Of a stretch of 44,592 nt of DNA, positions 1,187-42,276 are shown piece by piece. The notes beneath the pieces were generated by a model. The model worked only from the letters and a program-made list of their open reading frames with translations. It had not been told where the DNA came from and ran no database searches. The stretch is taken from sequence record MN158212.1; one strand, written 5' to 3'. Source of the DNA: Escherichia phage BEK1-1. Every line of letters starts with the position of its first letter. Position 1 is the first letter of the stretch. Made by a program: the position numbers and the translations under genes.

Positions 1187-1262
1187 ATTTAACCTCGTTC
1201 GTCGTTGATGGGGGTAATCATACTCCACCTTTTAATTTTTTATTTAGCAATTTGTGCTATTT
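1187..1262 (-). promoter_or_regulatory. box promoter (AAATAGCACAAATTGCTAAA, 20 nt, TATGAT, leader ACCCCCATC...) upstream of the annealase gene
   Basis: Direct reading of the reverse complement; same architecture as the other copies. Confidence 0.5.
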
Positions 1263-3104: not shown

Positions 3105-3150
3105 AAATAGCACTAATTGCTAAAGACAACTGACTATCTTTAGGTATATT
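3105..3150 (+). promoter_or_regulatory. box promoter (AAATAGCACTAATTGCTAAA, 20 nt, TATATT) upstream of the Rha-like gene
   Basis: Direct reading. Confidence 0.5.
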
Positions 3151-3222: not shown

Positions 3223-3870
3223 ATGAACATTGAAGTGTGCAAAGAACAATCAAAAACCATGATGAGCACAAAGGAAATCGCAGAGTTAACCGGCAAACGT
3301 CATGATCACGTCGTTCGCGACACAAAGGAAATGATCAATGAATTGTTACATTATAACGATGCCCCAGATTTGGGTCATGATGATTATCAACTACTTACAG
3401 ACAATCGAGGCTATACATCTGAGATTTTACTCAACAAGGAACTAACCGAAACGCTAATCACTGGCTACAGTGTCGTACTTCGCCACAAAGTAATCCGCAG
3501 GCTTCATGAACTTGAGGCTTTAGTTAAAAAACAAGCGGAAGTAATCAGCCAGATGGTAAGCATTGATGAGCTTAAAGAGGTTCGAATGATGCTTGGTGTG
3601 GCTAATGCGCAGAATGCACACCTGAGCCAGCGCATTGTTGCAGAGCAAAGAATAAATGAGATCTTACTCATGGATAAGAGTACCGATGAAAAACTAGACA
3701 TGCTGGCTTGTGAGGCTCGCCAGTGTTGGGTTAGTCGATCTGATGAGATGGAGGAAAGATTTAAGTATGAAGCCCAATGCTTCGCCCTTAAAGAAAAGAA
3801 TGATGCGCTGACCGGATTGATTGAGAATAATCTCGGCATTGACATCAAGCTGCTGCTGGAAAAGAAATAG
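3223..3870 (+). CDS. Rha-family phage regulatory protein (antirepressor-like)
   Basis: N-terminal ...STKEIAELTGKRHDHVVRDTKEM... resembles the Rha signature; C-terminal half coiled-coil-like; RBS GGAGAG. Confidence 0.5.
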   Translation: MNIEVCKEQSKTMMSTKEIAELTGKRHDHVVRDTKEMINELLHYNDAPDLGHDDYQLLTDNRGYTSEILLNKELTETLITGYSVVLRHKVIRRLHELEALVKKQAEVISQMVSIDELKEVRMMLGVANAQNAHLSQRIVAEQRINEILLMDKSTDEKLDMLACEARQCWVSRSDEMEERFKYEAQCFALKEKNDALTGLIENNLGIDIKLLLEKK

Positions 3871-3910
3871 CACTAATTGCTAAACACTGATCGCAAGGAT
3901 GCGATACTAT
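3865..3910 (+). promoter_or_regulatory. box promoter (AAATAGCACTAATTGCTAAA, 20 nt, TACTAT, leader ACTCCATCGAAACGAAA) upstream of cor
   Basis: Direct reading; the box overlaps the stop codon TAG of the preceding gene. Confidence 0.55.
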
Positions 3911-15065: not shown

Positions 15066-15111
15066 ACTATACAGCAAAACTGAATAAGTGCTTTATCAAA
15101 AAGTGCTATGC
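15066..15111 (-). promoter_or_regulatory. box promoter (variant box, 20 nt, TATAGT, leader AACTCATCGAAACGAAA) upstream of the 82-aa gene
   Basis: Direct reading of the reverse complement. Confidence 0.5.
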
Positions 15112-15131
15112 AATAAAAAACCCTCCGAAGA
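15105..15131 (-). terminator. intrinsic terminator after the major tail protein gene
   Basis: Minus strand AAACCCTC-TTCGG-AGGGTTT followed by TTTTTATTGC. Confidence 0.7.
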
Positions 15132-15142
15132 GGGTTTGTGTT

Positions 15143-15799
15143 TTAAACTTCGGCCGCCACAGAAGACAGGCGACCACGAATTGATACTGCGATGGATACC
15201 GTTTCGATTTCGTTAACACCAATGGTAGGGGTGTCATTGAAAGCGATAGTACCGGACTGCAAACGCATTTCCTGAGCGCGAGGTACGAACAGACGAATTG
15301 CAACAACCTGGCCAGACTCATCGTACTTACGCAGAACCGGATAGACCGGGTTGGTGTACTCGTGAGCAAAGGTGAAGGTGTTTGTTACCGCAGATTTATA
15401 AGTCGGAATCTGCTGCTCGCGGTCATCGGACAAACACTGGAAGTTAACGAACTGCTGCTCACCGCCGTCAGTAGATACGTCCTGAACGCACGGAACTTCG
15501 AACCAGGAAGTAATCTTGACAACTTCACCAGTTAAACCAGTAGGGAACTTAGTGGTGTCGGAGGTATCAATACCTTCAACTGTTACCGAAGTGCCAGAAA
15601 CTTCAGTTACTCTCACCTGCTTGTCGCTAAGTAGGGTTGAGGTGGAGGCGGTAAACAGAAGGTAGTCACCCTTAGCCAGGTCAGATGCGCTAGATACGGT
15701 TAAAACTGGTTTATCTTTGTTAGAGATTGCAGTTACGGTAATTGGAGCTCCGCGAGTTCCTTCTACGAAGACCTGCGTGCCATTTGATAAATGAGCCAT
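15143..15799 (-). CDS. major tail protein (gpV-like)
   Basis: 218 aa, Thr/Ser/Val-rich; position before the chaperones; followed by a strong terminator. Confidence 0.65.
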   Translation of the reverse strand: MAHLSNGTQVFVEGTRGAPITVTAISNKDKPVLTVSSASDLAKGDYLLFTASTSTLLSDKQVRVTEVSGTSVTVEGIDTSDTTKFPTGLTGEVVKITSWFEVPCVQDVSTDGGEQQFVNFQCLSDDREQQIPTYKSAVTNTFTFAHEYTNPVYPVLRKYDESGQVVAIRLFVPRAQEMRLQSGTIAFNDTPTIGVNEIETVSIAVSIRGRLSSVAAEV

Positions 15800-24860: not shown

Positions 24861-24938
24861 TGGCGCTCCGCACTGGATTCGAACCAGTAACCTACGACTT
24901 AGAAGGTCGTTGCTACTATCCTATTGAGCTAGCAGAGC
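24861..24938 (-). tRNA. tRNA-Arg (anticodon UCU)
   Basis: Minus strand reads GCTCTGC...TAGCTCAATAGGATAG...ACGACCTTCTAAGTCGT...CTGGTTCGAATCCAG...GCGGAGC-G-CCA; acceptor stem pairs 7/7 (one G-U); anticodon loop CT-TCT-AA; T-loop GGTTCGAATCC. Confidence 0.85.
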
Positions 24939-25919: not shown

Positions 25920-25965
25920 ATTATATGCCATCCATGGCGACTGCGTTTAGCAATTCGTGCTATTT
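25920..25965 (-). promoter_or_regulatory. box promoter (AAATAGCACGAATTGCTAAA, 20 nt, TATAAT)
   Basis: Direct reading of the reverse complement. Confidence 0.55.
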
Positions 25966-26276
25966 ATAGAATGACTTAACAAAAGCCTCAGGTGTCACGC
26001 CTTGCTTGTACGGCTTGATTAAATCCTTAATGATGAACCAGTGGAAAGTCTTCATATCAAAGACCAGTCGTTCACATGCGATAACATATTCAGTGAAGAT
26101 CATTGTTTCTTCTCCCGTTCCATCCATATTTGCGCCAGCTCGTAGTAAGCCATGGCCTCTTCGCCAGTTTTGGCTTCGTCCTGCATTCGCTTACACCACT
26201 CTACTGGGCTTTCTTGTGCTTCCATGATGAATCACCTTACTTAAATTATCGTTCGTTAGAATGCGTTTTAGGCGCG

Positions 26277-26699: not shown

Positions 26700-26755
26700 C
26701 GATGGGGTAACTATAACAAATTACCCCAATACAGTTTTAGCAATTCGTGCTATTT
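26700..26755 (-). promoter_or_regulatory. box promoter (AAATAGCACGAATTGCTAAA, 20 nt, TATAGT, leader ACCCCATCGAAACGA)
   Basis: Direct reading of the reverse complement. Confidence 0.55.
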
Positions 26756-26900
26756 AGCATTCTTTGACAACTTCACACCACTTAATAGTTCCCCCAAGAA
26801 CCCTCTGCTGATCAAATGTTTTATGAAACCCATCGTACACTCGAACATGCTTAACGCTATTGAACTTTCCTGTGTAGTATGTGTGAACGTAAATCATTTG

Positions 26901-27380: not shown

Positions 27381-27427
27381 ACTATAACAAAACCCGCCGT
27401 AGCTGGTTATGCAAAAGGTGCTATTTA
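27381..27427 (-). promoter_or_regulatory. box promoter, half-box variant (AAATAGCACCTTTTGCATAA, about 20 nt, TATAGT)
   Basis: Direct reading of the reverse complement. Confidence 0.4.
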
Positions 27428-27681
27428 CCAACCTGAATTGATTTAGACGATTCATGAATCATCTTCTGCCCGTAAAGCTCTTTAGCCTTCTGTAGTGACT
27501 CAATAGAGTCATTAAGATCAGTTAAGTAATCCTTGTGGCCACGCAATCCAGTACAAAGCATCTTCTTTAATGCGTGCTGAGTGGCCGGGTCAGATACGCC
27601 AAACGCATCAAGAACGCGATAAACATCTACTGTTGTTACCGTGCCATCAATGCCAATAATTTCTCGCTCGTACTTGCTCAT
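27421..27681 (-). CDS. hypothetical protein (86 aa)
   Basis: ORF with GAGGA RBS. Confidence 0.4.
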   Translation of the reverse strand: MSKYEREIIGIDGTVTTVDVYRVLDAFGVSDPATQHALKKMLCTGLRGHKDYLTDLNDSIESLQKAKELYGQKMIHESSKSIQVGK

Positions 27682-27873
27682 ATATCAATCCTCGTCACTG
27701 TGCCGCCATGCGTCTTAAGCATGAGGTTTGCGTATTTTTCGTCTACATAGTGCAGGAACATATCAATTCCCCTGCTGCTGAATTTATGTTCGTATATCGT
27801 CACTTAACTTACACTCGTGTGGTTGATGTGGGGATTATACCAGTCAGGATGAATCCCCTTTTAACAATTATTG

Positions 27874-28092
27874 CTATTTGATAACCCCGTACTTAACCGC
27901 GTTGGCGAGGGTAATATACTCCTTAGCCGTCAGCGTTGAGTGAAAGGTGAAGATTCCGGCCTGGATACCCTTAACCAGCGATTCAGTCTTGATCCCTGAA
28001 ATGTTGACGATCCCGAGACCGCCAACAGTGCGAAGAACCACTCCGGAAACCACACAAAACTCCACACCATTACTATTCGTATACACCTGCAT
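27874..28092 (-). CDS. hypothetical protein (about 72 aa)
   Basis: Start at internal ATG (MQVYTNSNG...) after AAGGAG. Confidence 0.4.
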   Translation of the reverse strand: MQVYTNSNGVEFCVVSGVVLRTVGGLGIVNISGIKTESLVKGIQAGIFTFHSTLTAKEYITLANAVKYGVIK

Positions 28093-28105
28093 TATAATTT
28101 CTCCT

Positions 28106-28363
28106 TCATTGCCTCTCCGCCTCTTCCGCCGCAAGGATTAATGCCGCCGCCAGCTTGCGTGCTTGCTCAGGACTGTATTGCATAATCGTCTGACAATCTC
28201 CGCATTCATCCGGGTCGAAATCCAGACATACAACGGGACCTCGATCTCTTTTTGTAATGCTTATCTCAGCTTGGTCTAAGTAAAGATCTTCAATACGAAC
28301 AGCTTCCATATTCATTTCCTCTTTGTTTTCGATTGGGTAATCATAGCTAACTACCCGATCCAT
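28106..28363 (-). CDS. hypothetical acidic protein (85 aa)
   Basis: ORF with box promoter immediately upstream. Confidence 0.4.
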   Translation of the reverse strand: MDRVVSYDYPIENKEEMNMEAVRIEDLYLDQAEISITKRDRGPVVCLDFDPDECGDCQTIMQYSPEQARKLAAALILAAEEAERQ

Positions 28364-28385
28364 TGTTTAGCAATTCGTGCTATTC
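28340..28385 (-). promoter_or_regulatory. box promoter (AATAGCACGAATTGCTAAA, 20 nt, TATGAT, leader ACCCAATCGAAAACA)
   Basis: Direct reading; the box overlaps the TAG stop of the upstream gene. Confidence 0.55.
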
Positions 28386-28904
28386 GCCGATAATAAGCGA
28401 TTTAGCTTTCCGGTAGAAATCGACAGCCCTCTCCACCTCTTCCTCATTGTACCGCAAGTGGTATGGTAGTCTACTAGCGTGCTCACCTTCGTAAGTTTTG
28501 AAGTTAGGTTGCCAGTACTCATCAATGATAGCTGGGTGGACGTAAATCTTATCCCCAATGAGGAAAACTAGATTCATTTCCTCTAGATCAGGGATTAGTT
28601 CGTCCTTAATGCGAGCTATGATATCAAGGCATCCTACGAACGGCTTAATCTTTCGAGCCTCCTCGTGTACAGACTTGACACCCACCACTCCCCTTCCGTT
28701 TCTTGCCATCTTCCTGATCAGCTTAATCAGAACTCCCAGCGCTTCATCTCTGTAGACTTCCGATGCATCAGGCTGGCCCCATAGGTGCTGAACATGCCGA
28801 TAACCGTTAGCATTGATTGCAACCCGCAGTGGCGGTAGCCCATCCTGGATAGCAATATTCATAATCTGCTCGTCCGTCAGTTTCTCTTCATCGAAATTAA
28901 ACAT
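28380..28904 (-). CDS. hypothetical protein (174 aa), short paralogue of the 527-aa P-loop protein
   Basis: N-terminus MFNFDEEKLTDEQIMNIAIQDGLPPLRVAINANGYR and C-terminus ...NGRGVVGVKSVHEEARKIKPF...LIGDKIYVHP align with the ends of ORF 31388..32971. Confidence 0.5.
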   Translation of the reverse strand: MFNFDEEKLTDEQIMNIAIQDGLPPLRVAINANGYRHVQHLWGQPDASEVYRDEALGVLIKLIRKMARNGRGVVGVKSVHEEARKIKPFVGCLDIIARIKDELIPDLEEMNLVFLIGDKIYVHPAIIDEYWQPNFKTYEGEHASRLPYHLRYNEEEVERAVDFYRKAKSLIIGE

Positions 28905-29983: not shown

Positions 29984-30069
29984 GCAACAATCAAAGACAT
30001 CATTGCATCTGAAGCAATATTGCTGTATATGCAATAATCATGTGAATCATTGCAATATCTGCAACAATC
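29984..30069. repeat. iteron-like cluster (GCAACAATC x2, ATCATTGCA x2, palindrome GCAATATTGC)
   Basis: Direct reading of gcaacaatcaaagacatcattgcatctgaagcaatattgctgtatatgcaataatcatgtgaatcattgcaatatctgcaacaatcc. Confidence 0.5.
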
Positions 30070-30085
30070 CATAAATCTGACGAAT

Positions 30086-30129
30086 GGCACTTTTTGCTAA
30101 AGACACTGGAGGTCATGGAGGATATAGTT
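30086..30129 (+). promoter_or_regulatory. box promoter, half-box variant (CACTTTTTGCTAAA, about 20 nt, TATAGT, leader AACTCATCAAAACGAGG)
   Basis: Direct reading. Confidence 0.45.
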
Positions 30130-30344: not shown

Positions 30345-30584
30345 ATGAAAACTCGCTGTACCAATTGCATTACAAGTACCGGCAAGAAGGTATTAACTCC
30401 ATTCGTTAAAGGCTCTGTATACGACGCTGAGCCGCTAATCATTAACGGTAAGGCAATCCCGAACGAATGGTTGATTAATGGCGCTGAGAGACCGCACAAG
30501 CACGATTCTGGATGGATTGCTATCGCTGGCTGGAAGGTTGGGATGTTTATTCCTGGGATTGCAACTTTTGACGAGGTGAAGTGA
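30345..30584 (+). CDS. hypothetical protein (79 aa)
   Basis: ORF with RBS-like GAGG; second gene of the rightward early operon. Confidence 0.4.
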   Translation: MKTRCTNCITSTGKKVLTPFVKGSVYDAEPLIINGKAIPNEWLINGAERPHKHDSGWIAIAGWKVGMFIPGIATFDEVK

Positions 30585-30745
30585 TGCTGCTGCCATCTGA
30601 GATAAATTATTTCGATCTTGAAGTCATAAGCGCATACAGCTGGAAGGGTTGGCCTTGCGGGGACTGGTTTCGCGAAGACTTACTTGAGAGTCATGAAATT
30701 ATGCTCAAGGCCATAGAAAAAGCACGAAATAGCACTAATTGCTAA
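30584..30745 (+). CDS. hypothetical protein (53 aa)
   Basis: ATG overlaps the upstream stop (TGATG); 3' end AAT AGC ACT AAT TGC TAA coincides with the box. Confidence 0.35.
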   Translation: MLLPSEINYFDLEVISAYSWKGWPCGDWFREDLLESHEIMLKAIEKARNSTNC

Positions 30746-30772
30746 ACACTGATCGCAAGGATGCGGTATTAT
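30727..30772 (+). promoter_or_regulatory. box promoter (AAATAGCACTAATTGCTAAA, 20 nt, TATTAT)
   Basis: Box and spacer nearly identical to the cor promoter (CACTGATCGCAAGGATGCG). Confidence 0.5.
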
Positions 30773-30798: not shown

Positions 30799-30963
30799 AT
30801 GTTCGACAACTTTCATGACGCGATAGAAGAGGCATTGTACCGCGCGTCACTTGATGGGAAGATTTACGGTTTAGTTCAGAAGGTTGACAAGATTGTTGTG
30901 CGAATCGTGCGCAAATCAGTACCTAACAAATTCATGTGGACAACTAAGAGAGTAACAAAATGA
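30799..30963 (+). CDS. hypothetical protein (54 aa)
   Basis: GGGAG RBS; below the track cutoff. Confidence 0.35.
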   Translation: MFDNFHDAIEEALYRASLDGKIYGLVQKVDKIVVRIVRKSVPNKFMWTTKRVTK

Positions 30964-31313
30964 CCAATACGATTACCAAAAACTGGATCAGCAACGAAAA
31001 TGTACTCTATAAAGCTCGCGTTAAAGATGGAGTAGAGCAAATCAAGAAAGATGGAAAATGGATTAACCTTGAAGAGCGCGGCAAGTACATCAAGACAAAG
31101 ACAATTTACTGCACAAATGTTAATCATCGCTCATCCATTCGTAAATACTTCACTGAAGGGAAGAGGTATCAAGTAGATCTCCATGCTGGACTTGGTCAGT
31201 TCGCTGGATACATTTACGATAAAGAGGGCAGCGCATGGCAGGTATATCGTGACGAAGATGTTGGCTTTGTTACAGTTTGCGGCGACTACCGCTTTGAGGC
31301 TCAATACCGATAA
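30960..31313 (+). CDS. hypothetical protein (117 aa)
   Basis: ATGA overlap with the upstream gene. Confidence 0.4.
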   Translation: MTNTITKNWISNENVLYKARVKDGVEQIKKDGKWINLEERGKYIKTKTIYCTNVNHRSSIRKYFTEGKRYQVDLHAGLGQFAGYIYDKEGSAWQVYRDEDVGFVTVCGDYRFEAQYR

Positions 31314-31387
31314 TAAGCACAAATTGACAATGAATTATAAGCGGCCGTTGATATAATGGCCGCTCAGAAACAATACGGAGACAAGTA

Positions 31388-34739: not shown

Positions 34740-34786
34740 ATTATGCCGCATTTCTACGGCATTAGTTAGGCAAAAAGTGCTATTTA
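34740..34786 (-). promoter_or_regulatory. box promoter, half-box variant (AAATAGCAC..., 20 nt, CATAAT, leader ACCACATCGAAACGAG)
   Basis: Direct reading of the reverse complement. Confidence 0.45.
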
Positions 34787-35265
34787 CCGTGCCTCTCTGT
34801 GAATTCTGGGTTACCCTCGTAAACTGACTTCGCATATGATACTGCTTCTTCTTTTGTGTAGAAGGTTTTGTAAACCCTGTTTTTATCAATCTGAATTTGA
34901 ACAAGCCACGGCTTTCCATCCCTTTTTATCTTATTTATGAAGTAAACACCTGTAACTCCTGATGTGTTATCCTTTCTCATAGCTGCATTCTTGCAGTTAA
35001 CCCATCTATCTACGCATCTCAAATTCTCTATCCGATTATCGTGCTTAACTCCATTAATGTGATCGATTTCCATACCTTTAGGGACTTCTCCGTTATGCAT
35101 TTCCCATATTACTCGATGGGCAAAAGTCATCTTTGAAAACAGTTTAGTCCTAACGTACCCCCTCAAATCAATATACCCAGCCTTAACTCCGTTATAAGAT
35201 GATACCCTGTGGTTCTTTCTGTACAAATCACCATTTGAATATTCGTAATAATCGTGCCAATTCAT
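34780..35265 (-). CDS. HNH homing endonuclease with AP2-like DNA-binding domain
   Basis: ...AHRVIWEMH...EIDHINGVKHDNRIENLR... (HNH) and ...SGVTGVYF...KPWLVQI...KTFYTKEEA... (AP2-like). Confidence 0.7.
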   Translation of the reverse strand: MNWHDYYEYSNGDLYRKNHRVSSYNGVKAGYIDLRGYVRTKLFSKMTFAHRVIWEMHNGEVPKGMEIDHINGVKHDNRIENLRCVDRWVNCKNAAMRKDNTSGVTGVYFINKIKRDGKPWLVQIQIDKNRVYKTFYTKEEAVSYAKSVYEGNPEFTERHGK

Positions 35266-35293: not shown

Positions 35294-35339
35294 ATAATAG
35301 CCGCTTTCGCGGCTACTGTTTTAACAAAAGGTGCTATTA
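35294..35339 (-). promoter_or_regulatory. box promoter, variant, with hairpin TAGCCGC-GAAA-GCGGCTA inside the 20-nt spacer
   Basis: Direct reading; the hairpin may also terminate transcripts from the upstream phosphoesterase gene. Confidence 0.4.
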
Positions 35340-36491
35340 GTATTTGGATCCAGGGTTTGCGTCACGAAGCATTTCAACAGGAATGCTCACTCGACTAACT
35401 TCTCCATACTTCTTGTGATACGTAATAACGTTTGCACTACGCCCAGAGAAGTACCCGCCCTTGGATGAGTACTCATCTTTTGCAGCAAGTGTCTGGTGTT
35501 GCTCAATAATCATCAAGCTAGTTTCCTTAACCGCTCTGTGGTGCAGGTGGCCTAGGTGCGTGTATGCGAACTTGGATTTACCAAACATCTCACGATACTT
35601 AGCAATTATTGCTGATTCAACTCTGGAGAAGTTAGCGCAATGCCCGTGATGCATGGCAATCATAACGTCTCCAAATTCATATGCGTAGTAAGGGGAAACT
35701 TCGCGATTCACTTCAACTCGCTCATTTTCAATAAATACTTCATGAAACATCTCGCGCAACCATAATGAAGATACCGGGTTGTGATTTCCCTCACAAATCA
35801 ATAGCTTAACCTTTTTATGTTTAACCAGGCACATGCTTATGGCTGCCTTGATTAATTTAATCTGAGTCCGAATCATTCGGAATAATCTAGTATCAGCAGA
35901 AAGAATGTGACCACTCATTGGGGTTACAGCTTTCATTGAGTCGTAGTGAGCCTCATCCCCTAAAAAGTTAATTATGCATTCATCGCTGTTCGGGCTCATT
36001 GCCACGGCGCTGCTGAACCAGTCCAATGCTAATTTCTCAGCAATCTTGGTGTCATAATTGTCACCACCTTCCTCTGCGCAAGCAAGCATTCCAATGTGAT
36101 GGTCTGTGATGGTGTAGAGGTTGAGAATGTCAGAATTAGTTATCTCACCTGAGTGGTTAACAGCATCGTACTTAGGTAGCTCTTTCTTAAGCTCCTCAAC
36201 AACAATTTGCATCAGCTCTTGCTGTCGCTCCTTGTCAACTTCTGATTTAACCCACTGACCTTTAATCTCACCATCGGCACCAATTAAGCTAGACACACCT
36301 TTGACAGCGTAACCTTGAGGAATTAGGTTGCTTACATCACGGCCGTGCCCCTCACCCCGTTTTGCCAGCTTACTACGACGCAATTCAACGTTGCGAATGT
36401 TCATTCCGTACTTCTCTGCGATTGCCTTGTTGGTCATTCCATTCGCCAGCTCTTCGCGTAGTTGTTCGTTGGTGATTTTTGCAGTTGCCAT
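35337..36491 (-). CDS. calcineurin-like metallophosphoesterase with N-terminal helix-turn-helix domain
   Basis: N-terminal ...MTNKAIAEKYGMNIRNVELRR... (HTH-like); phosphoesterase-like motifs ...ITDHHIG..., ...GDEAH..., ...EGNHN..., ...MHHGH..., ...GHLHH... Confidence 0.55.
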   Translation of the reverse strand: MATAKITNEQLREELANGMTNKAIAEKYGMNIRNVELRRSKLAKRGEGHGRDVSNLIPQGYAVKGVSSLIGADGEIKGQWVKSEVDKERQQELMQIVVEELKKELPKYDAVNHSGEITNSDILNLYTITDHHIGMLACAEEGGDNYDTKIAEKLALDWFSSAVAMSPNSDECIINFLGDEAHYDSMKAVTPMSGHILSADTRLFRMIRTQIKLIKAAISMCLVKHKKVKLLICEGNHNPVSSLWLREMFHEVFIENERVEVNREVSPYYAYEFGDVMIAMHHGHCANFSRVESAIIAKYREMFGKSKFAYTHLGHLHHRAVKETSLMIIEQHQTLAAKDEYSSKGGYFSGRSANVITYHKKYGEVSRVSIPVEMLRDANPGSKY

Positions 36492-37662: not shown

Positions 37663-37696
37663 TCTTTAAAATCGTCTTTAGCAATTCGTGCTATTT
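37651..37696 (-). promoter_or_regulatory. box promoter (AAATAGCACGAATTGCTAAA, 20 nt, TATAGT, leader ACTCCATCGAAACGAAA)
   Basis: Direct reading of the reverse complement. Confidence 0.55.
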
Positions 37697-38110
37697 TGAA
37701 ATCATTTCTTCAAATGCTGCCAGGAAGCCCTCTCTACCGTAGGCAACTCCAGCGAAACCTCCTGATTCTCTCACGCTTTTAAGGAAGGACTTCTGTTCGT
37801 CACTGACTGGACTAGCTTGAGTTTTTCCCGCCCTCTTTAGCTCTATGGCCCCAAAAGGGTACTTTCCTCTAAGTGATTCAGGTATCAGGAATAAGCAGTC
37901 CGAAACCCCCTTAAGCAATCCTTTGGCCTGGTCCTTCCTTGCTTGTCCAATGGTCTTCTTACCCTCATTCACGCAGTGGAAAAATACCATCTCTGGATAG
38001 TTATACTTAACCCAATCAGAGCAAAAGATTTGTTCGTCATCCTCTTTCGGGCATGACTTAACCGGGCCAGGGTAAAACTCAATGTAATCAACTTTGTCTG
38101 TAATGTTCAT
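37691..38110 (-). CDS. VRR-NUC domain nuclease
   Basis: ...GVSDCLFLIPE...GAIELKRAGKTQASPVSDEQKSFL...GGFAGVA fits the VRR-NUC PD-(D/E)XK pattern; coupled to the helicase gene. Confidence 0.6.
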   Translation of the reverse strand: MNITDKVDYIEFYPGPVKSCPKEDDEQIFCSDWVKYNYPEMVFFHCVNEGKKTIGQARKDQAKGLLKGVSDCLFLIPESLRGKYPFGAIELKRAGKTQASPVSDEQKSFLKSVRESGGFAGVAYGREGFLAAFEEMISK

Positions 38111-40101: not shown

Positions 40102-40149
40102 ATCTGAATTCCTATAAAAATTGTCTTGTAGCGTTTAATTGAGTACAAT

Positions 40150-40191
40150 ATTACCATCAAATCATGATGACTTTTAACAAAAAATGCTATT
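40150..40191 (-). promoter_or_regulatory. box promoter, half-box variant, upstream of the helicase gene
   Basis: CAATAGCATTTTTTGTTAAA, 20 nt, AATATT on the reverse complement. Confidence 0.35.
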
Positions 40192-40202
40192 GAGGTAATA
40201 AG

Positions 40203-40688
40203 ATGAATGCAGTCGACAAGCGAACCATTAACGGTAATAACGGAACCATCCGCACTGAAGACAAAAAGCAACGGAAACGACCTTCAGGTTACTACGTTTT
40301 GAAAGATGAGGTAAGGGCGGGTTTACGTGCGCGGCTGGAAATTGTTCTTGATTTCTTCGGCACAAAGGCAAATATGGCAAAGCAATTAAAGGTAACACCA
40401 CAGGCTGTAGAGGAATGGTTTAAGCGCGGCATGATTTCTGCGCGCGGGGCTCAACTCTCACACAACTACTACAAGCGAACCGGGGAAGGCTTTCGCGCCA
40501 CATTCTGCCGACCAGATCTGCAATTCGACGGCAACGGCAAGCCTCTTACTCTACGTTGCAAAAAGCGTCACATGCTGCGTGTTGTTACTGAGGCTGAATT
40601 AGCCACCAAGCCAGAGTGTCGATCATGGCGCAAGATTAAGGAAGAGAATCGCAAAAAGCGAGAAGCAGAGAAAAATAGCACGAATTGA
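40203..40688 (+). CDS. putative HTH DNA-binding regulator (161 aa)
   Basis: ...FGTKANMAKQLKVTPQAVEEWFKRGMIS... resembles a Cro/CI-type helix-turn-helix; basic N- and C-termini. Confidence 0.45.
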   Translation: MNAVDKRTINGNNGTIRTEDKKQRKRPSGYYVLKDEVRAGLRARLEIVLDFFGTKANMAKQLKVTPQAVEEWFKRGMISARGAQLSHNYYKRTGEGFRATFCRPDLQFDGNGKPLTLRCKKRHMLRVVTEAELATKPECRSWRKIKEENRKKREAEKNSTN

Positions 40689-40725
40689 TAAACAATGGCG
40701 CTATGCATTGTGTATAGTGCCTTTA
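40673..40725 (+). promoter_or_regulatory. box promoter (AAATAGCACGAATTGATAAA, 20 nt, TATAGT) upstream of the second HNH gene
   Basis: The box overlaps the last codons (NSTN-stop) of the HTH gene. Confidence 0.5.
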
Positions 40726-40738
40726 TTGTTTATGGAGG

Positions 40739-41269
40739 GTGTATATGAAAGTTAATGATTTTGTTTATGTTGATGATGAATTTAAATTAAGATGGAAGAG
40801 TAGAGGTGTTGAATTCTTCAAAACAGAGAGGTCATCAAAGATCTGGAATAGTAGGTTTGCAAACAAGGAATGTGGATACATTAGGGATGACGGCTATCTT
40901 TCTTTTGAGTTCAATGGTCGAGCATACAGAAATCACAGGGTGATATGGGAAATTGTAACTGGTAATGAAATAGATGATAACATGGAGATTGACCATATAG
41001 ATCATAATACAACAAACAACAATACTGAAAACCTTAGACTTGTTGACAGGAAAGAGAATTGCAAAAACCAATCCATGATGCCCCATAACTCGAGTGGCTT
41101 CACAGGTGTTCACTGGTGGTCAGCAAGAAACAAATGGAGAGCCCGCATCGAATGTGATGGCAGAGTGAAAACAAAAACATTTGAAGACTTTAATGACGCC
41201 GTCGAGTGGAGAAAAGAAATGAACATAAATCTTGGCTTTCACAAGAATCATGGAGATAAGAAAAAATGA
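40739..41269 (+). CDS. HNH homing endonuclease with AP2-like domain (paralogue of 34780..35265)
   Basis: ...YRNHRVIWEI...EIDHIDHNTTNNNTENLR... and ...SGFTGVHW...KWRARIECDGRVKTKTFEDFNDAVEW... Confidence 0.7.
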   Translation: MYMKVNDFVYVDDEFKLRWKSRGVEFFKTERSSKIWNSRFANKECGYIRDDGYLSFEFNGRAYRNHRVIWEIVTGNEIDDNMEIDHIDHNTTNNNTENLRLVDRKENCKNQSMMPHNSSGFTGVHWWSARNKWRARIECDGRVKTKTFEDFNDAVEWRKEMNINLGFHKNHGDKKK

Positions 41270-42189
41270 AATTTTATGATAAGAAAGAGGTATTGCCAAG
41301 AATGATGGGGATGTGGAAGGATGCCCTCATAAACATTTGTGATGCGCCTGAGAGCTTCTTTAATGGCAAGCACCAGCCATGCCTATATTGTGGAGGTCGG
41401 GATCGGGCTAGATGGACTGATAACCTATCTATAAAAGGTGACGGCGGAAATATATGCAATCAGTGCGGAAACGACACTGGAATAGGGTTGATGATGAGGC
41501 TTACTGGAATGAACTACAATGAGGCCATAAATGTATTAGGTGACTGGCTCAACCTTATACCTACAGAGGCTATATCAAAAGCAAACAAAAGAGCTTCAAG
41601 AACATCACCATACAAAATGGGAGCACAGATCGACCACGAAAGATGCCTGGAGATAATGGAAAGAACTGAAAGAGTAGAATCAACCCCACTCAGCACATAT
41701 GAGGGTATCTATAGTGAGTTTGGTTTTGATGTTGGCAGGACAAAATCAGGCGAACTAATACACGCAATACCGTGTTTTATGGCTTATAGTGACGGCATAT
41801 CGGAAGAAATGTGCAATGTAATGTTTATCAATGAAGATGGAGATGTTAGTTATGCTGCAAAAGATTATACTCGCCAATCTGTCGCTGTTATTGGTGCCTT
41901 TAAAAGTGATGAGTACGCTTATCTGGTCGATAATCTCATTGACGGCTATCGTGTTCACATTGCTACTGGGAGCCGCTGTGTGCTTGTTTGCTACTCTAGT
42001 TACAACATGGAAATGGTTGCTTATGCGCTTAGAAACCACAAGCTGAGAGTGGCTTGTACTCGCCACGATTTTGATTTACTCGCCGTTGCTGATGATCGCA
42101 ATCTTGATGTGGTAATGCCAAATGATGATAATTTTTTCAAGTCAGGCATAAGAAAGCGAATATACAAAGCAAGCGAATTACTAGACTAA
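41266..42189 (+). CDS. putative DNA primase (N-terminal Zn-ribbon)
   Basis: ...CLYCGGRDRARW...CNQCGN... resembles the primase zinc-ribbon; lies next to the helicase block; ATGA overlap with the HNH gene. Confidence 0.5.
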   Translation: MKFYDKKEVLPRMMGMWKDALINICDAPESFFNGKHQPCLYCGGRDRARWTDNLSIKGDGGNICNQCGNDTGIGLMMRLTGMNYNEAINVLGDWLNLIPTEAISKANKRASRTSPYKMGAQIDHERCLEIMERTERVESTPLSTYEGIYSEFGFDVGRTKSGELIHAIPCFMAYSDGISEEMCNVMFINEDGDVSYAAKDYTRQSVAVIGAFKSDEYAYLVDNLIDGYRVHIATGSRCVLVCYSSYNMEMVAYALRNHKLRVACTRHDFDLLAVADDRNLDVVMPNDDNFFKSGIRKRIYKASELLD

Positions 42190-42211: not shown

Positions 42212-42276
42212 TGCCTGAAAGATGATACAATCCAATTTAGCAATTCTTGCTATTTTACAAATGGAGACTTTACACA

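Follow-up and report, generated by a model that had tools for sequence, protein, structure and literature searches.

In the window, meaning the whole 44,592-nucleotide stretch of Escherichia phage BEK1-1 (record MN158212.1) analysed here, the 20-base repeat AAATAGCACnAATTGCTAAA is probably to be understood as the upstream element of a sigma-70 promoter that lacks a -35 hexamer and is served by a Cro-fold activator, with the overlap between this box and upstream stop codons arising from genome packing and the box-encoded protein tails as by-products. The box occurs in 16 copies, each with a -10-like hexamer exactly 20 nt later, and 16 of 16 sites lie on the same strand as the downstream gene, at a box-to-start-codon distance of 70-91 nt (median 76; the exception is box 3105, with 118 nt). 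Ten occurrences of AAATAGCAC in the window compare with 0.53 expected, and 11 occurrences of the box 20-mer at up to three mismatches with 0 expected. A position matrix finds 16-18 box sites in the window; when box and -10 are scored together, 16 window sites reach at least 21.7, the shuffle maximum being 14.7. Because window and T1 sites alone went into this combined matrix, the Webervirus-like Klebsiella phage and Hanrivervirus serve as independent tests. The positions G6, C7, A8, G15 and A19 are invariant in 71 of 71 boxes from the window, T1 and these two lineages. The sites in the window are given below, except for the focal box, which follows with the regulator gene.

1243..1262, minus strand: box; positions 1-2 overlapped by TAA 1263-1261 of the exonuclease gene 1261-2226; -10 TATGAT 1222-1217
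3105..3124, plus strand: box with full consensus in a divergent intergenic region, without upstream gene; -10 TATATT 3145-3150
3865..3884, plus strand: box; TAG 3868-3870 stops the Rha-like gene 3223-3870; -10 TACTAT 3905-3910
15092..15111, minus strand: box in the tail-gene cluster; upstream gene 15143-15799 ends 31 nt earlier; -10 TATAGT 15071-15066
25946..25965, minus strand: box; TAG stops ORF 25960-26127; -10 TATAAT
26736..26755, minus strand: box; positions 1-2 overlapped by TAA of ORF 26754-26897; -10 TATAGT
27407..27426, minus strand: box; TAG stops ORF 27421-27681
27860..27879, minus strand: box; TAG stops ORF 27874-28134
28366..28385, minus strand: box; TAG 28382-28380 stops ORF 28380-28904; -10 TATGAT 28345-28340
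30082..30101, plus strand: degenerate box (GAATGGCAC...); 21-nt spacer to TATAGT; upstream ORF ends 8 nt before
30727..30746, plus strand: box; encodes N-S-T-N-C and TAA (positions 17-19) of ORF 30581-30745; -10 TATTAT 30767-30772
31312..31331, plus strand: degenerate box (AATAAGCAC...), promoter element of a 527-aa helicase-like gene; overlapped by TAA 31311-31313 of ORF 30960-31313
34766..34785, minus strand: box; TAG stops ORF 34780-35265, likely an HNH homing endonuclease
35320..35339, minus strand: box; positions 1-3 (TAA) stop ORF 35337-36491; -10 TATTAT
37677..37696, minus strand: box; TAG stops the VRR-NUC gene 37691-38110
40173..40192, minus strand: degenerate box CAATAGCATTTTTTGTTAAA, part of the helicase promoter; -10 AATATT 40152-40147
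42236..42255, minus strand: orphan box without -10 at +20, antisense between the primase and tail-fibre genes

The element itself is not new. The source genome is T1-like (Drexlerviridae, Braunvirinae, Veterinaerplatzvirus), with 93% identity to Veterinaerplatzvirus records, and judged by its consensus the box represents, in this phage, the direct repeat aaATAGCACnnnTTGnTAAAA that is found throughout the Drexlerviridae. The direct repeat of T1 reportedly goes back to Roberts et al. 2004. All the traits by which the published T1-like repeat is recognised (the consensus aaATAGCACnnnTTGnTAAAA; 16-21 copies per genome, oriented with transcription at ~76 nt to the start codon; a Drexlerviridae genome) were found for the window box, the central-triplet subgroups GAA, TTT and TAA/AAA occur in both, and there is no difference in the element as such. 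The cassette at 26736..26755 has counterparts at ~83% identity in hundreds of T1-like phages, those of Klebsiella and Citrobacter among them. The excerpted text of PMC4319613 describes the same repeat in Stevie and T1, and that of PMC11447400 the same 21-22-nt direct repeat in TLS, T1, Rtp and Rogue1, ~76 nt 5' of start codons; in these excerpts the repeats are termed 'intergenic' and their function unknown, an open question as of 2024. The exact 20-nt spacing from box to -10 and the systematic embedding of upstream stops are absent from the repeat descriptions in the same excerpts (PMC4319613, PMC11447400). A literature search with the exact motif string gave only unrelated papers among the matches listed. 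An exact-pattern scan of IMG/VR returned mostly single matches, probably due to chance, with T1-like contigs as the multi-hit loci; the cross-lineage counts used here were taken from complete phage records and not from IMG/VR.

Each cassette of ~75-80 nt comprises the 20-nt box, a variable 20-nt spacer (often a hairpin), a -10-like hexamer (TATAAT, TATAGT or TATGAT) and a 3' part made of a conserved ...CCCATCGAAACGAG leader, Shine-Dalgarno sequence and start codon. The hexamer stands exactly 20 nt after the box at 15/18 sites in the window, 15/20 in T1, 13/14 in the Webervirus-like phage and 12/19 in Hanrivervirus, whereas every other offset places such a hexamer in at most four boxes; Vibrio phage Vc1 shows the same layout. 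This fixed distance suggests that the box is the upstream half of a promoter. The sequence-only reading is supported in its view of the box as a regulatory element at gene junctions. No -35 hexamer was found in the box cassettes at a usable distance (16-18 bp from the -10): TTGCTA, considered for the part, lies 22 bp from the hexamer, which is too far. Four cassettes reach 9/12 in a consensus scan, three via a weak TAAACA and one (30082) via AAGACA. Canonical sigma-70 promoters are not enriched in the window (39 found, 40.4 expected), and TLS has only three according to the excerpted text of PMC11447400. A literature search for a T1-like transcriptome or mapped transcription starts found none.

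Assuming that transcription starts ~7 nt after the hexamer, the box would lie at about -52 to -33 and its quasi-dyad TAGCA-N5-TGCTA, with half-sites 10 bp apart, would be centred near -42, both positions being counted from the -10 assignment alone. Because a usable -35 is missing and the dyad would be centred near -42, the box is most likely the putative site of a dimeric helix-turn-helix activator that replaces the -35 contact, as in promoters of the class II type. Two further sigma factors were considered and rejected. For sigma-54, TAGCAC...TTGC is similar to TGGCAC-N5-TTGC, yet it lacks the GG, its spacing falls 2 nt short and the -10 that comes next is of the sigma-70 type; for sigma-32, a CCCCAT in the leader comes without matching -35 and is present in a subset only. 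A point against the activator model is that, with a phage protein required at almost every early-region promoter, immediate-early expression would have to proceed from very few canonical ones, which is plausible.

The best candidate for such a protein is encoded by the gene that runs into the focal box.

40121..40149, plus strand: TTGTCT-17-TACAAT, promoter of the sigma-70 type for the regulator gene; its counterpart in TLS is P57
40203..40688, plus strand: regulator gene of the T1-gp23 family, Cro-fold helix-turn-helix (phrog_2856, E=1.4e-83); its variable C-terminal tail enters the box
40673..40692, plus strand: focal box AAATAGCACGAATTGATAAA (TTGATA variant); supplies the regulator gene with its last residues K-N-S-T-N and its TGA stop (40686-40688)
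40697..40721, plus strand: spacer hairpin of 11 pairs that holds the -10 hexamer, then TTTATTGTTT; dG -16 kcal/mol, z -2.56
40713..40718, plus strand: -10-like hexamer TATAGT, exactly 20 nt past the focal box
40745: start ATG of the HNH gene downstream of the focal box

The ORF 40203-40688 protein is singled out as likely activator because it is family-wide, has a canonical sigma-70 promoter of its own (one of few) and carries a box in its own leader. Conservation extends to every lineage examined, including T1, the Webervirus-like phage, Hanrivervirus and Vibrio phage Vc1. Profile matches to P22_Cro and YdaS fall below the Pfam cut-off, and a sequence search of solved structures with the regulator found none; the AF2 model (pLDDT 88.7) has a Cro-like core matching Xfaso-1 Cro and N15 Cro, with weak E-values in the fold search (0.03-0.6) and consistent Cro matches. 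The regulator's promoter is near-consensus at the same position in the Webervirus-like phage and Hanrivervirus, the stretch 5' of the gene containing TATAAT in these two and T1, and TTGTCT-17-TACAAT in Braunvirinae relatives. An inverted box is located just 5' of the regulator start codon in all lineages compared (AugustePiccard is outside this comparison), and box 40173..40192 on the minus strand sits within the 5' leader of the divergent regulator gene. Since regulator and box both occur throughout the family without variation, their co-occurrence tells nothing about a link between them.

The starting point for the analysis of stop codons was the claim that several boxes overlap the end of the preceding gene, and all five cases then cited (ORFs 40203-40688, 30584-30745, 3223-3870 and 28380-28904, and the exonuclease gene) are correct. 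A stop codon of a co-directional upstream gene is held or touched by 13 of the 16 boxes, compared to 9.35% of random 20-nt windows (binomial P = 1.8e-11). The exceptions are boxes 3105 and 40173, without co-directional upstream gene, and box 15092. At the last of these, ORF 15106-15369 does end in the box but was not counted, being a shadow ORF within the major tail gene, which itself ends 31 nt upstream. In the window, the in-box stop is TAG at box positions 4-6 in 7/13 cases and TAA or TGA in the rest, and TAG ends 7/13 box-junction genes against 8/67 other genes (Fisher P = 0.002). Across the four lineages (window, T1, Webervirus-like Klebsiella phage, Hanrivervirus) 50/71 boxes show the overlap, with a stop-frame use of 37:5:8 in favour of frame 1; this speaks against packing as the sole cause, from which all three frames should be used about equally often.

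The box contains TAG at positions 4-6 in frame 1 and TAA at 17-19 in frame 2 (TGA at 14-16 in the TTGATA variant), and with its leading AA it makes up a TAA in frame 3. Given the tight packing of a headful-limited genome, genes would then end at whichever of these stops they meet first. Because of this built-in TAG and TAA, and of tight genome packing, the stop-in-box pattern is best explained by packing against a motif with stops in two frames. The strong selection for keeping the box at junctions that the sequence-only reading implied is largely what such tight packing would produce with a promoter element of any kind. That reading's notion of a dual constraint holds in one direction: the box dictates the C-terminal residues of genes entering it, but there is no sign that coding constrains the box. 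The boxes without upstream gene (3105, 40173 and T1 36442) retain the same core.

The residues thus imposed are mostly a final K or E before TAG, with deeper overlaps giving NSTN or NSTNC. ORF 40203-40688 ends in ...E K N S T N TGA and ORF 30581/30584-30745 in ...N S T N C TAA; window ORF 30581 and T1 gp66 both end in NSTNC without detectable similarity to one another. Many regulator orthologues end in -STNC, -STNS, -STDC or -STN. The idea that the overlap is a conserved, selected protein feature did not survive comparison of orthologous regulator ends, which differ widely at the very junction cited. The regulator of 12397V stops 5 nt before the box, that of the Webervirus-like phage at the box TAG and that of Hanrivervirus at TAA 17-19; in AugustePiccard and T1 the gene has no box at its end and a terminator instead. 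The window regulator owes its tail to a 7-nt deletion, by which its reading frame was shifted so as to continue into the box. Because they turn up in proteins that are not related, and because orthologues lose or alter them, the box-encoded tails (K, E, NSTN or NSTNC, each followed by the stop) are, as far as sequence comparison tells, by-products and not conserved protein features. For annotation this means that gene ends in these phages are set by the box, and that short tails such as NSTNC are not to be taken for conserved protein motifs.

The spacers add a structural component to the cassettes, in that 12/16 spacer/-10 regions fold better than the shuffle mean, 10 with z <= -1.37 and 4 with z < -4. 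The spacer hairpin of box 35320 (AGCCGCgaaaGCGGCT plus T-run) is terminator-like and overlaps the -10 TATTAT, and that at 40697..40721 looks like a terminator of the regulator transcript. In T1 and TLS, some spacers are annotated as rho-independent terminators, so the cassette may do more than initiation.

Compatible with the promoter reading, and to our judgement possible though on the whole unlikely, is the proposal that the cassettes serve as portable modules at gene junctions, each uniting a stop, the activator site, a hairpin or terminator, the -10 and the leader, and that genes are inserted, deleted and swapped by recombination between them; the in-box stops would then be an adaptation that guarantees termination of any gene landing upstream. 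Such modules would be analogous to the PeSL promoter-terminator cassettes of T4-like phages, which provide a precedent (PMC2839356, PMC4122927). Of the BLAST homology breakpoints against three relatives, 29/106 fall within cassettes +/-5 nt, which make up 3.8% of the window; breakpoints cluster at gene boundaries in all phages, however, and with nothing else conserved between the variable genes than the boxes, alignments would end there anyway. A breakpoint occurs at 8/14 box junctions against 11/67 box-less junctions (T145P1), a comparison confounded by the box-less junctions lying mostly in the conserved structural region. At box 34766, homology to three relatives breaks off at 34786/34787, only 1-2 nt outside the box; HNH genes directly adjoin boxes, the cassettes 3865 and 30727 share 39 identical nt between unrelated flanks, and spacer hairpins are enriched (mean z about -1.8). 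Stops are, on the other side, supplied by the box in only two of three frames. A combined reading, which we put forward as speculative and rather unlikely, treats the cassettes as 'gene sockets', with one Cro-fold activator and ~16 promoters lacking a -35, that both express and exchange accessory genes. Every cassette would in addition close off the gene before it, through stops within the activator site and a hairpin or terminator around the -10. Were it true, a gene recombined between two cassettes would be automatically terminated, insulated and expressed, and the strong preference for frame 1 (box TAG) would be a trace of modular exchange.

It appears rather unlikely that the box is recognised by host machinery with no phage protein involved, as a UP-like element bound by RNA polymerase alpha or through some abundant host factor that binds there. 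Box promoters would in that case be the true early promoters, consistent with the boxes preceding most small early-region genes, which are expected to be expressed before any phage protein exists, and with the constancy of the box from E. coli phages to those of Klebsiella, Citrobacter and Vibrio, as for a conserved host target. The box arms YAG.A / T.CTR may resemble the Lrp consensus. The TLS authors, in the excerpted text, suggest a UP element or enhancer site (PMC11447400). The position of the box would suit a UP element (about -40 to -60), but the invariant positions contain G/C (GCA, G15), whereas UP elements are A/T-rich and without specific G/C positions; moreover, the 10-bp separation of the half-sites in the dyad suits a helix-turn-helix dimer, and the universally conserved Cro-fold regulator has an autoregulation-type layout.

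Improbable, in our assessment, is a negative role of the box as operator or L5-like 'stoperator', for example in shutting off early genes late in infection. Orientation with transcription and intergenic spread are like those of the L5 stoperators, as the excerpts have it (PMC4319613, PMC11447400). An orphan box without -10 lies between the primase and tail-fibre genes at the same place in T1 as in the window (42236..42255), and box 40173 in the regulator's leader would repress that gene. The rigid 20-nt spacing to the -10 in divergent lineages, across a non-conserved spacer, is nonetheless the property of a promoter and not of a roadblock, and it sets the box apart from an L5-type stoperator, the promoter-independent repressor site of a temperate phage. 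Repression at promoters without a -35 presupposes an activator, and T1-like phages are virulent by the excerpted account of PMC11447400. Highly improbable, and already largely refuted by the sequences, is an action in RNA, through a UAGCA-loop-UGCUA hairpin at the 3' end of the upstream message (translation termination, read-through, stability): the box is always on the sense strand, often with a stop codon, and the C16/T16 alternation preserves G-C or G-U pairing, but none of the five putative pairs shows a compensatory change in 71 boxes, one-sided changes break pairing, the box matches no Rfam family (one tRNA is the only Rfam match), boxes without upstream gene (3105, 40173) retain the consensus and the fixed -10 spacing is left unexplained, so that the box would be a DNA site.

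The promoter reading has importance for a classic but poorly understood group of phages. The rigid -10 distance in distant genera, the missing -35 and the layout around a Cro-fold protein together turn 'function unknown' into a concrete, testable model. The overlap of stop and box is an ordinary and modest consequence of tight packing; the promoter model that can be tested is the useful product.

Among known systems, the PeSL cassettes of T4-like phages are likewise short composites of promoter and stem-loop, repeated between small variable genes (PMC2839356, PMC4122927). The PeSL coincide with the endpoints of insertion, deletion and replacement between related phages; the box cassettes may do so too, breakpoint statistics that are confounded by gene-boundary and conservation effects suggesting a role in recombination. 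Unlike the box cassettes, PeSL contain ordinary sigma-70 early promoters with a -35, and the sequences are unrelated. The stoperators of L5 share with the box an asymmetric short repeat in many copies, placed in short intergenic gaps and oriented with transcription, but they are repressor sites of a temperate phage without fixed relation to a -10, whereas the box belongs to a virulent family.

The closest mechanistic analogies exist with class II activator-dependent sigma-70 promoters, to which those dependent on the C-proteins of restriction-modification systems belong. Lambda cI bound at OR2 is a class II activator of PRM with its site centred near -42, and the Mor/C-dependent promoters of phage Mu have a dyad near -43.5 and no -35. 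Like these, the box promoters combine a good -10 with the lack of a usable -35, and a ~15-bp dyad that would lie near -42 with what is presumed to be a small dimeric helix-turn-helix protein. The candidate regulator has the Cro/cI fold, yet its sequence does not detectably place it in the Mor/C or the cI family. The box differs from the class II examples in being asymmetric, with flanking A-runs on one strand, and in its reuse ~16 times per genome as what appears to be a general early/middle promoter.

Most upstream genes end in or at a repeated box, and the box is probably part of a promoter. The genome in the window is nearly complete and belongs to a T1-like siphophage of E. coli; over 6.6 kb it shares ~93% identity with the vB_EcoS-12210I/12397V group (Drexlerviridae, Braunvirinae, Veterinaerplatzvirus). 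The focal box, AAATAGCACGAATTGATAAA at 40673-40692 (+), is one copy of a 20-nt repeat placed at gene junctions. The 9-mer AAATAGCAC occurs 10 times in the window against 0.53 expected, and the 20-mer with at most three mismatches 11 times against 0 expected, the strand always being that of the downstream gene. A position matrix composed of the box and a hexamer 20 nt downstream returned 16 window sites with scores of 21.7 or more; the top score of five shuffled windows was 14.7. The window's element belongs to an already-known T1-like repeat family. Stevie is reported to have 16 copies of VWATAGCAYKWWTTGYTAAAAV and T1 20 comparable ones, oriented with transcription and of a role stated as unknown (PMC4319613). 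The 2024 re-annotation of TLS gives 21 copies of aaATAGCACnnnTTGnTAAAA ~76 nt 5' of start codons and reports the repeat in T1, Rtp and Rogue1 too; it counts no more than three promoters of sigma-70 consensus in TLS, guesses at a stoperator, an enhancer site or an UP element, and lists the function among the field's open questions (PMC11447400). In the sections consulted, both papers term the repeats intergenic and neither mentions a -10 at fixed spacing or embedded stops (PMC4319613, PMC11447400).

The sequence-only reading had placed the ends of several upstream genes within or against the box, and reading of the sequence bears this out for each gene named:

40203-40688 (+), regulator gene: ends ...K N S T N, TGA within the focal box
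30581-30745, ORF: ends ...N S T N C, stop is the box TAA at positions 17-19
3223-3870 and 28380-28904, two ORFs: stop is the box TAG at positions 4-6
exonuclease gene: TAA overlaps box positions 1-2

The stop of a co-directional upstream gene lies in or touches the box at 13 of the 16 window sites, compared to a chance rate of 9.35% for a random 20-nt window to contain a stop, with ORFs of 30 aa or more considered (P = 1.8e-11). Of the three exceptions, boxes 3105 and 40173 lie in divergent regions and lack an upstream gene; the ORF that runs into box 15092 was excluded from the count as a shadow frame within the major tail gene. TAG serves as stop in 7/13 box-junction genes versus 8/67 other genes (P = 0.002), and this excess implies that the box supplies the stop. 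When sites were collected with a box-only matrix built from the window and T1, the pattern was confirmed and found to extend across the whole family; the annotated T1 genes ending in or on a box are ST76, 72, 71, 69, 66, 65, 62, 21, 19, 16, 6 and 4.

Stop codons of upstream genes relative to the box.
Window, TAG at box positions 4-6: 7 sites
Window, TAA at box positions 0-2: 3 sites
Window, TAA at box positions 1-3: 1 site
Window, TAA at box positions 17-19: 1 site
Window, TGA at box positions 14-16: 1 site
Box-only matrix, upstream ORF stop in or on the box, window: 13/18
Box-only matrix, T1: 13/20
Box-only matrix, Webervirus-like Klebsiella phage: 11/14
Box-only matrix, Hanrivervirus: 13/19
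Box-only matrix, four-lineage total: 50/71, 29 of them at TAG

The further proposal, that this dual use is under strong selection, is not supported by comparison of the orthologous regulator ends: the overlap is labile at the very junction cited. In 12397V (93% identical) the regulator gene has its own TAA 5 nt 5' of the box, the TTGATA variant being retained; in AugustePiccard and T1 the junction contains a terminator only, the box being absent; in the Webervirus-like phage the stop is the box TAG, right behind the conserved core (...MLRVVR); and in Hanrivervirus it is the TAA at 17-19. The tail of the window's regulator arose from a 7-nt deletion that shifted the frame past the ancestral TAA into the box, and T145P1 reached the same outcome through a 13-nt deletion. 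Among 37 aligned regulator homologues, many lineages end in -STNC, -STNS, -STDC, -STN or -STI, behind linkers of very different lengths. Elsewhere, the TAG class takes its last codon, mostly K or E, from box positions 1-3, and deeper overlaps yield NSTN or NSTNC ends. The NSTNC end is common to the window's ORF 30581 and T1 gp66, which have no detectable similarity otherwise, and it also terminates the Dcm-like methyltransferase of AugustePiccard and, from sequence and annotation, a Stevie CDS annotated as Stp-like. Labile ends and frameshifted tails thus identify the tails as by-products of meeting a motif with stops in two frames. Of the mutual constraint suggested earlier, one half stands, in that the box fixes protein C-termini; the other finds no support, since the core is unchanged in boxes that have no gene upstream, with no sign of coding needs shaping the box. 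The overlap is therefore understood mainly as a by-product of packing and not as a conserved dual-coding device. Both frame-2 overlaps of T145P1, 37775 (-) and 27501 (-), have T4 changed to C, giving AAACAGCAC. For the overlapping gene this is a synonymous substitution (AAT to AAC), but the box core loses its TAG and the box is weakened, which may hint at a conflict between coding and box uses (n = 2).

Behind the box follow, in order, 20 nt of non-conserved sequence, a -10-like hexamer (TATAAT, TATAGT, TATGAT or TATTAT), a conserved stretch near TACCCCATCGAAACGAG, the Shine-Dalgarno sequence and the start codon, the distance from first box base to start codon being 70-91 nt (118 nt at box 3105). 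A hexamer, called at ≥4/6 matches with A2 and T6 included, starts exactly 20 nt past the box in 15/18 window, 15/20 T1, 13/14 Webervirus-like and 12/19 Hanrivervirus boxes, and at any other offset in at most four boxes; Vibrio phage Vc1 has the same layout. TTGCTA was ruled out as a -35 element, 22 bp from the hexamer being too far. The early region holds 39 consensus sigma-70 promoters against 40.4 expected, hence no enrichment. If transcription started ~7 nt past the hexamer, the box would occupy about -52 to -33, and the centre of its quasi-dyad (TAGCA-N5-TGCTA, half-sites spaced by 10 bp) would fall near -42. G6, C7, A8, G15 and A19 are invariant in 71/71 boxes, and changes at the five 'pairs' that the dyad could form are all one-sided, a pattern that fits a protein-DNA site; the one-sided changes, together with the lack of an Rfam match at the box, oppose an RNA helix. 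In the same 71 boxes a GAA centre goes with C16 (16/20) and a TTT centre with T16 (21/32), correlated subtypes that may reflect two promoter classes.

The gene with the flagged end is itself that of a candidate box-binding regulator. ORF 40203-40688 is homologous to gp23 of T1, which carries the annotation 'transcriptional regulator'; it matches phrog_2856 (E = 1.4e-83) and, below threshold, P22_Cro and YdaS. Homologues occur almost solely on T1-like-looking contigs of about 45-53 kb, and the protein is present in T1, the Webervirus-like phage, Hanrivervirus and Vc1. The AlphaFold model (37 sequences, pLDDT 88.7) has a helical core, residues 35-93, matching the all-alpha Cro of Xfaso-1 and N15 (TM to target ~0.7). 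Upstream of the gene, at a position corresponding to P57 of TLS, the Webervirus-like phage, Hanrivervirus and T1 have TATAAT, and Braunvirinae relatives the window's TTGTCT-17-TACAAT; an inverted box of the divergent helicase promoter lies just 5' of the regulator start in every lineage whose start-proximal sequence was compared, which covers all but AugustePiccard. This layout is that of an autoregulated activator and makes the protein a candidate box reader on circumstantial grounds. Box and regulator are both universal and invariant in the family, so co-variation is of no use as a test. At 40144-40152 the regulator -10 TACAAT (+) and the helicase box-promoter -10 AATATT (-) overlap face to face, hence the two promoters should compete. 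The more useful product of the analysis is a testable model in which the promoter lacks a -35, an activator site lies at ~-42 and a specific protein is the candidate regulator; it bears on the function that T1 specialists list among their open questions.

Further sites were noticed. Between the genes for primase and lateral tail fibre lies, in antisense orientation, an orphan box of full consensus, 42236-42255 (-), with no -10 at +20 and a terminator-like hairpin behind it; its counterpart in T1 occupies the same position, 34900-34919 (+). This orphan may serve for binding alone, as roadblock or decoy. The box promoter at 15092-15111 (-), which separates the major tail protein gene from the one that follows it in the tail cluster, is conserved in two relatives, T145P1 and AugustePiccard, and has degenerated in 12397V; within the late region it would act as an internal promoter. 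TTGCA/GCAAT palindromes (GCAATATTGC, ATTGCAAT) cluster at 30000-30075, a divergent region just 5' of the degenerate box 30082, and may mark a further regulatory site or a region resembling an origin. A tRNA-Arg (anticodon TCT), found in other T1-like phages too, lies at 24861-24938 (-), and a short (AAT)n run at ~2943-2960, in the 400-nt AT-rich divergent region between recombination operon and Rha-like gene.

The spacers add to the density of the junctions. In twelve of the 16 spacer/-10 regions the fold is better than the shuffle mean (z ≤ -1.37 in ten, below -4 in four), and three spacers resemble intrinsic terminators with the T-run over the -10; terminators are annotated at exactly these positions in T1 and TLS. 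One junction can thus hold stop codon, box, hairpin or terminator, and -10 in ~60 nt. Orthologous spacer hairpins, AGCCGCgaaaGCGGCT (window 35296-35317, (-)) and ACCCGCgaaaGCGGGT (T1 41975-41996), differ by a compensatory swap; the T1 region is annotated as a rho-independent terminator, its T-run overlapping the next promoter's -10 TATTAT.

Packing alone predicts roughly equal thirds among reading frames and does not account for the 37:5:8 distribution of stops over frames 1 (positions 1, 4, 10), 2 and 3 in the four lineages (chi-square P = 7e-9, with orthologous junctions counted as if independent, hence a lower real significance). Modular exchange of cassettes, each running from box to start codon, could have produced the bias, as rival or complement to packing. 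Cassettes contain 29 of 106 homology breakpoints against three relatives, far above expectation at 3.8% coverage, and HNH genes adjoin boxes, but the breakpoint statistic is confounded by gene-boundary and conservation effects, for which reason we regard exchange as a rather unlikely source. Also in its favour, two cassettes 27 kb apart have 39 identical nt in common, 3865-3903 and 30727-30765 (+), comprising box and spacer hairpin ATCGCAaggaTGCG and flanked by unrelated sequence, an identity that suggests cassette duplication or gene conversion. Two HNH homing endonuclease-like genes, 34780-35265 (-) and 40739-41269 (+), lie directly against boxes; homology to relatives stops at 34786/34787 and 40738-40749, and these mobile genes therefore appear inserted at cassette edges. 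Packing is retained as the main reading of the overlap, and as regards exchange, the T1-like box cassettes recall the PeSL promoter-terminator cassettes of T4-like phages (PMC2839356, PMC4122927).
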